Assembly: GCF_988242995.1 (NCBI RefSeq)
Contig: NZ_OZ547043.1
Reading direction: 5' to 3' (one strand)
DNA: 64,000 nucleotides
Both the position numbers and the translations under genes were made by a program. The notes beneath the pieces are model-generated. The model made no database searches and was not told the origin of the DNA. It saw only the letters and a list, made by a program, of their open reading frames with translations. This document shows, one piece after another, positions 37,541-37,724 of this stretch (its first letter is position 1; every line of letters starts with the position of its first letter).

Positions 37541-37650
37541 AGTCCCCTCTCCCCTTTGGGGAGAGGGTTAGGGTGAGGGGAACAGGCCAGCTCCGGGGCG
37601 AATATTTACCCTCACTCCGACCCTCTCCCTGAAAGGGCGAGGGGGAAAAA
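37541..37650. repeat. Inverted pair of GC-rich Box C-like extragenic repeats
   Basis: cccctctcccctttggggagagggttagggtgagggg (about 37544..37582) and its near reverse complement ccctcactccgaccctctccctgaaagggcgaggggg (about 37609..37646). Confidence 0.6.
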
Positions 37651-37724
37651 CATGCCCGCAGTGACGAGTGAGCCACTTTGCCTGCACTCTCAAACTCCCG
37701 GACAAGCCGGGAGTTTGGAGTAGG

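Follow-up and report, generated by a model that had tools for sequence, protein, structure and literature searches.

Genes and repeats between yijF and gldA

The window analysed here, a 64,000-nt stretch of DNA, derives from an Escherichia coli chromosome, and its yijF–gldA intergenic region is 100% identical to that of strain 118UI. Genes are arranged in the order yijE (plus strand), yijF, gldA, and fsa (all minus strand). Along the transcribed minus strand, the gldA stop codon is followed by a short palindrome, a pair of GC-rich repeats, the yijF upstream region, and finally yijF itself. The features of the locus are as follows (window coordinates).

36777–37394, minus strand: yijF coding sequence (DUF1287), from the ORF list, the 118UI RefSeq annotation, and PF06940
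37395–37724: yijF–gldA intergenic region, 330 bp
37395–37510, minus strand: yijF upstream region, common to all alleles and near-invariant in 11 E. coli strains
About 37505–37694: composite BoxC element of about 190 bp with approximate ends, made of a left flank, a type-A unit, a spacer, an inverted type-B unit, and a right flank
37545–37580, plus strand: type-A BoxC/TMECO unit (arm A), CCCTCTCCCC-TTT-GGGGAGAGGG-TTA-GGGTGAGGGG, 35/36 identical to K-12 TMECO #7, #11, and #15
37581–37607: spacer of 27 nt, forming the top of the predicted long hairpin and kept in the pairs at gcvP–ygfF, alx–sstT, and fepB–entC
37608–37643, minus strand: type-B BoxC/TMECO unit (arm B), CCCTCGCCC-TTTCA-GGGAGAGGG-TCG-GAGTGAGGG-T, 34/36 identical to K-12 TMECO #10
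37691–37701 and 37707–37717, minus strand: arms of the predicted gldA 3′ hairpin, with an 11-bp perfect stem and a 5-nt loop (acaag)
37725–38828, minus strand: gldA coding sequence (glycerol dehydrogenase), from the ORF list and the RefSeq annotation of the identical 118UI locus

A consensus scan called no sigma-70 promoter between 37300 and 37800, and a terminator consensus scan made no call at the BoxC arms or at the gldA hairpin. The single terminator-like match (37668–37655, minus strand) is a 5-bp stem in the right flank of the composite and was judged not to be meaningful. Two minus-strand ORFs crossing the repeat, at 37506–37676 (56 aa) and 37568–37705 (45 aa), are unannotated in RefSeq and are probably spurious low-complexity read-throughs of the repeat. 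Gene callers can mistake such ORFs for proteins, an example of the encoded peptides being PLTLTLSPKGRGD. Separately, a deletion in the Logan assembly SRR29118794 (extract 2501–3121) fuses gldA codons 1–66 in frame to yijF from codon 64 onward; the junction is a common GG, and the whole intergenic region is gone along with most of gldA.

The GC-rich arms are a copy of the BoxC family

An earlier sequence-only reading of this DNA had described a pair of GC-rich, Box C-like elements lying in inverted orientation between yijF and gldA. Repeat finding recovered this pair as two arms of 39 nt each (37544–37582 and 37606–37644) that are 79% complementary across a 23-nt gap, and the Box C label proved right given the near-identity of both arms to K-12 copies. 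Members of the BoxC/PIT/TMECO family consist of a pyrimidine block, a complementary purine block, and a G-rich third block able to form G·G:C, A·A:T, and T·A:T triplets, and both arms have this three-block form. The family pairing rule, a type-A and a type-B unit on opposite strands, is followed as well, with arm A on the plus strand, arm B on the minus strand, and a 27-nt spacer between them. As for other members of this multi-copy family, the location is intergenic, and the 64-kb window contains one copy. Judged by its sequence, the pair is thus an ordinary copy of a long-known family, variously named BoxC, PIT, TMECO, or HPG1/HPG2.

The likeness to BoxC (Bergler 1992; Bachellier 1996), PIT (Hoyne/Maher 2000), and TMECO (Holder et al. 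2015, PMC4666352) extends from the three-block sequence and the published A and B loops to the inverted A and B pairing, the intergenic and multi-copy occurrence, and the variability between strains. In K-12 MG1655, 23 TMECO sequences are tabulated (Table 1 of PMC4666352) and equated with the repeats named BoxC in the 1990s and PIT by Hoyne/Maher 2000, whereas the older literature described BoxC as 56 bp in length and present in 32 copies. Five K-12 sites are paired, each with a type-A and an inverted type-B unit (Holder et al. 2015, PMC4666352). In our alignment, four of these five pairs share the head-to-head orientation of the yijF–gldA pair, with spacers of 16–27 nt, while the units of the lldD–trmL pair face the opposite way. 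The yijF–gldA locus itself lies outside the 23 K-12 copies.

The two arms of the window copy also differ from their relatives in detail. Arm A is a type-A unit without the usual mismatch, in which all 10 Watson–Crick pairs can form and all 10 purine-motif triplets are allowed. Arm B is slightly decayed, with 8 of 9 Watson–Crick pairs and 8 of 9 triplets, i.e., one stem mismatch and one disallowed triplet: an extra G-to-A change (T at 37616 on the plus strand) breaks one G-tract and one triplet. Because GGGG is intact here in strains EC488 and O166:H15, we interpret the change as recent decay in the 118UI lineage.

The same arms can be compared with HPG1 and HPG2, described as a G-quadruplex–hairpin–duplex switch (Kaplan et al. 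2016, PMC5100583). HPG1 combines a canonical G-quadruplex (G4) motif, G3+ N1–7 G3+ N1–7 G3+ N1–7 G3+, with the 21-mer GGGAGAGGGTTAGGGTGAGGG, and arm A contains this 21-mer exactly, inside a canonical motif at 37558–37580 (plus strand) that is the only one in the 64-kb window. HPG2 combines a canonical G4 with the 21-mer GGGAGAGGGCCGGGGTGAGGG (≤1 mismatch), whereas arm B reads GGGAGAGGGTCGGAGTGAGGG, with two differences, and has TCG-GAG in place of CCGGGG. No G4 motif was found on the minus strand, so arm B holds no canonical G4. Opposite-strand pairs of HPG1 and HPG2 have been described at gcvP–ygfF, alx–sstT, and hrpB–mrcB (PMC5100583), all of which are loci aligning with the window element; Kaplan et al. 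2016 (PMC5100583) makes no link between its motif and BoxC.

Predicted folding of the repeat pair

Each arm contains a palindrome of its own, CCCTCTCCCC/GGGGAGAGGG in the left one (37545–37554 and 37558–37567, 100% complementary) and CCCTCTCCC...GGGCGAGGG in the right one, and none of 100 shuffled versions of the window contained a match to the 23-mer GGGGAGAGGGTTAGGGTGAGGGG. The potential for a large hairpin or cruciform, also raised in the sequence-only reading along with RNA structure prediction as a check on it, was borne out by predicted DNA and RNA folds. As DNA, the 108-nt core folded with z-scores of −4.5 (plus strand) and −4.0 (minus strand). As RNA, both strands of the 225-nt region folded beyond shuffles, at −105 kcal/mol (z = −5.9) for the minus strand and −109 kcal/mol (z = −5.6) for the plus strand, and 0 of 200 shuffles folded equally well. 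A long hairpin may thus form in single-stranded DNA or in any RNA that reads through from gldA, and arm A, on its G-rich strand, could adopt a local hairpin, a purine-motif triplex, or a G-quadruplex. Such structures would be of the kinds that the literature ties to local sequence instability.

These predictions raise the question of whether arm A acts as a DNA-level switch, its duplex, hairpin, triplex, and G-quadruplex forms modulating yijF transcription, replication fork progress, or recombination. [quoted passage not shown] BoxC loci are, moreover, hypervariable between strains, with raised local sequence variability (Holder et al., PMC4666352). However, in vivo DMS footprinting revealed no triplex, the duplex prevails when the complementary strand is available, and arm B of the window copy has lost a G-tract and one triplet. 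The element also lies ~110–250 bp upstream of the yijF start codon, where no promoter is mapped. We thus regard a switch of this kind as very improbable.

The repeat unit is a composite of about 190 bp

The published descriptions considered here treat motifs of 34–37 nt only. When the window was aligned with the K-12 paired copies at gcvP–ygfF, alx–sstT, fepB–entC, and hrpB–mrcB, homology reached beyond the arms, and we therefore define the recurring unit as a composite of about 190 bp with conserved flanks. The gcvP–ygfF copy, also present in K-12, aligned to the intergenic query over 168 nt at 86–88% identity (megablast/blastn), from about TTTCAGAC to CTCTCAAA. Outside the arms, conservation was found in the left flank (AGAC-GATGAC...AAAAAG-GCTCG-CAGT) and in the spacer (AACAGGCCAGC...GCGAATATTTA), while that of the right flank was clearest at gcvP–ygfF and weaker at alx–sstT and fepB–entC. 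Per E. coli genome, the composite matched a median of 16 blastn places (range 1–28). This agrees with the published copy-number spread, which Holder et al. (PMC4666352) give as 1–2 in B2 strains and 20–30 in others, e.g., K-12 DH10B, IAI1, and W.

BoxC and BIME alleles occupy the same slot downstream of gldA

A comparison with the K-12 yijF–gldA region had been proposed as a check on the Box C assignment, but K-12 has no BoxC to find at this locus. Its intergenic region is 274 bp long and, between the boundaries ...GAGTTTCAGA and TCAAACTCCCGG..., holds 123 bp in BoxC's place, the segment that differs between the two alleles corresponding to 37511–37689 of the window. These 123 bp contain inverted GCCGGATGCGG...CTTATCCGGCCTAC and GTAGGCCTGATAAGCG...CATCAGGC around an AT-rich linker, an arrangement that we take to be a REP/BIME from its likeness to the REP consensus. 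In support of the label, this segment hits a median of 22 places in each genome by megablast. Elsewhere in the window, 5635–5648 and 53075–53088 agree with CTTATCCGGCCTAC, the REP tail, at all but one position, and the strain thus has REP elements at other positions.

The two kinds of repeat resemble each other in occupying an identical slot, in consisting of inverted GC-rich palindrome pairs, in lying downstream of genes, and in varying between strains, although their sequences are unrelated. REP elements have known partners, including RAYT transposases, IHF and gyrase binding, and IS621 targeting, and no such partner (RAYT, IHF, gyrase, or IS621) is known for BoxC.

The two alleles differ in frequency. 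Requiring ≥80% query coverage, the BIME allele was found in 4592 (85%) and the BoxC composite in 630 of the 5426 complete E. coli genomes compared; ~200 carried neither intact allele, some of them having a BIME interrupted by IS621. In strain 99_0849 (NZ_CP074766.1; extract 2501–4053), for instance, the BIME allele is split by an IS621 (IS110-family) transposase gene. The BIME is probably the older state in E. coli, because the deep-branching strains KKo003 and Ecol_276 (flanks ~4% diverged) carry it. Salmonella and Pseudocitrobacter have their own, different REP-like repeats at the same position. Overall, the slot downstream of gldA is prone to acquiring repeats, and refilling of one slot by unrelated structured repeats could reflect selection for structure there.

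Among four strains with the BoxC allele, the flanks differ by 28–51 substitutions per 1400 bp (2–3.6%), or by 7–21 between the two most alike strains, and the element itself by ≤2 nt. A near-identical element on diverged flanks, as seen in these four sequences, hints at spread by recombination or at constraint, and could mean constraint instead of recent spread.

How BoxC loci change between strains

At the four loci compared between strains (yijF–gldA, gcvP–ygfF, alx–sstT, and hrpB–mrcB), we found no clean empty site and no target-site duplication; variants consisted of replacements, internal deletions, and larger indels. At alx–sstT, strain Ecol_867 carries a deletion of 76 bp between two direct copies of CCCTCTCCC; both flanks of the composite and a single hairpin remain. 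This deletion fits the "palindrome effect" described by Holder et al. (PMC4666352), and the Ecol_867 genome gave one match to the alx–sstT query, as in low-BoxC-copy strains. At the same locus, ~500 bp of unrelated GC-rich sequence replaces the composite in an O9:H10 strain.

Past the gcvP terminator T-run, ~2400 of 5426 genomes, including O157:H7 and ST131, gave no match to the K-12 gcvP–ygfF segment. The break in homology coincides with the left end of the composite, directly after the gcvP terminator, and in the one ST131 O25b:H4 genome inspected (extract 2034–2198 versus K-12 C600 1139–2204) both the composite and ygfF are absent, with a REP-bearing segment instead. At hrpB–mrcB, ~100 bp are missing in one B2 strain, leaving an untidy junction. 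These patterns fit deletion or replacement at or within repeats, and not cut-and-paste transposition.

They also bear on whether the ~190-bp composite is a MITE that was inserted by a transposase acting in trans and displaced the BIME. Several of its properties would suit such an origin, namely a long imperfect palindrome of ~190 bp, conserved flanks reaching past the arms, presence or absence between strains, 1–28 copies per genome, and a near-identical element on divergent flanking haplotypes. MITEs are, however, recognized by terminal inverted repeats and by target-site duplications at precise insertions, and at the four loci compared no such duplication was found and filled and empty sites formed no clean pair. 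No partner transposase is known for the BoxC composite. ERIC/IRU and other enterobacterial MITE-like repeats share with it the form of imperfect intergenic palindromes (120–190 bp) predicted to give long RNA hairpins, but they have no sequence similarity to BoxC, and the composite lacks recognized terminal inverted repeats and target duplications. Holder et al. (PMC4666352) found no tie between the repeats and transposons, phages, or plasmids. Overall, we consider a MITE origin quite unlikely.

A broader reading would treat the slot as a "landing pad" in which unrelated structured repeats are swapped as cassettes, with BoxC as a movable unit of ~190 bp that took the place of the BIME a single time, after which recombination carried it across divergent E. 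coli backgrounds. The range of occupants (REP/BIME, BIME with IS621, the BoxC composite, and the REP-like repeats of Salmonella and Pseudocitrobacter) is what such a model would describe, yet we hold it to be a speculative proposal with the odds well against it.

A conserved stem-loop at the gldA 3′ end

The sequence-only reading had placed a perfect 11-bp palindrome next to the repeat pair. The palindrome does adjoin the pair and its 11-bp stem at 37691–37717 is indeed perfect, but its loop has 5 nt and reads acaag rather than acaa, only 7 nt (37718–37724) instead of 8 separate it from the stop codon of gldA (37725–37727), and it is a separate feature, found in the BIME allele too. Its predicted DNA fold has a free energy of −15.5 kcal/mol (z = −7.6). 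By coincidence, ACTC at the composite's right end adds four pairs in the BoxC allele, lengthening the predicted stem to 15 pairs with one bulge (37687–37721).

The hairpin is identical in all 11 E. coli strains compared, BoxC and BIME alleles alike. At the same place, Salmonella has AAUACUCCUGAC-GAUA-GUCAGGAGUAUU, predicted to form a 12-bp stem (−24.5 kcal/mol, z = −6.1), in which the outer ACUCC/GGAGU is common with E. coli while the inner bases differ yet pair. Because these inner bases have changed but stay paired, the stem-loop shows compensatory conservation. From these comparisons, we read the palindrome as a conserved gldA 3′ stem-loop that predates the repeat and is independent of BoxC.

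Intrinsic terminators combine a GC-rich stem with a U-run that follows directly. Since only 3 U residues follow this stem (UUUGAGAG) and it went uncalled in the consensus scan, its role at the transcript end is a matter of inference: the stem-loop is probably either a terminator, weak and poor in U, or a structure shielding the 3′ end of the mRNA. In one K-12 3′-end mapping dataset, gldA and yijF do not appear.

A further segment, 37482–37506 in the left flank of the insert, resembles the hairpin (18/25 positions alike, 72%, against 37692–37716; 19/25 in K-12) and was considered as a degenerate duplicate of it, which, if real, would set a second terminator on the other side of the insert. The segment folds no better than shuffles (z = +0.7), however, and the resemblance is probably due to chance. 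On the minus strand, this segment is followed by TTTTTTAT; chance or a very old duplication would account for it.

Protection of mRNA 3′ ends and reduced read-through are roles shown for some REP/BIME elements, and the composite may likewise act as RNA in the gldA 3′ UTR, by protecting against 3′ exonucleases or lowering read-through into yijF, with BoxC and BIME interchangeable. Read-through is plausible, as the gldA hairpin lacks a U-run and drew no call in the terminator scan, and the minus-strand RNA of the region is predicted to fold strongly (−105 kcal/mol, z = −5.9, as above). A structured repeat fills the slot in both E. coli alleles, in Salmonella, and in Pseudocitrobacter, and at alx the composite sits between the stop codon and a hairpin with a T-run. 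Against this, published assays detected no terminator or promoter activity of PIT/BoxC, BoxC copies keep no consistent orientation or distance to genes, the composite comes after the terminator at gcvP, and in some strains a BIME allele split by IS621 causes no apparent trouble. On this analysis, an RNA role for the composite would be possible but unlikely.

Wider distribution and likely function

The family is not confined to enterobacteria. In a scan of species-representative genomes with GGGAGAGGGTNNGNGTGAGGG, the matches listed included >100 loci in one Archangium (Myxococcota) MAG (JAEUJS01) as well as loci in Contendobacter, Afipia, and another proteobacterium. For most of the matches listed, a C-rich partner lies just upstream, giving the same three-block form, and among them a Candidatus Contendobacter MAG has inverted pairs like those of E. 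coli. This spread across phyla is not new, because it agrees with the report of G/C-rich triplex motifs in >260 genomes (Holder et al., PMC4666352). The Archangium copies of the module fall into two subfamilies, with loops TCG and CCCCTGC.

The statement that the function of these repeats is poorly understood, also made in the sequence-only reading, agrees with published work, in which PIT/BoxC elements had no promoter or terminator activity and gave no triplex footprint in vivo. Neither a gene-class bias nor a fixed orientation or spacing with respect to adjacent genes is seen among BoxC copies (PMC4666352). In an Rfam search at permissive E-values, the best matches were generic miRNA-hairpin models scoring ≤28 bits, against thresholds of 58–83 bits.

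Taken together, we estimate a probability of roughly 0.8 that the locus holds two independent things, a dispersed non-coding BoxC composite, which most likely has no dedicated host function, and a conserved gldA 3′ stem-loop. The composite would most likely be a structured repeat, neutral or selfish in nature, that serves neither gldA nor yijF in any dedicated way; it fills a repeat-prone slot downstream of gldA in the lineage studied here and may have spread and been exchanged through recombination or some mobilisation route.

Taken alone, the locus matters little: it is a further copy of a family described since 1992, with biophysical studies in 2000, 2015, and 2016, and the family itself, its inverted A and B pairs, candidate structures, strain variability, and wide bacterial occurrence are all published and already known. 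The present analysis adds the ~190-bp composite, the exact replacement of a BIME by BoxC with the frequency of each allele, and the setting apart of the gldA hairpin from the repeat. Of modest value are the recognition that the recurring unit is ~190 bp rather than a 36-bp motif and the demonstration that exactly one slot can be filled by either the BoxC composite or the BIME. If the landing-pad reading were true, it would give a first handle on BoxC movement. The two alleles, in 630 and 4592 genomes respectively, also form a natural pair that can be used to test the effects of such repeats on neighbouring genes.
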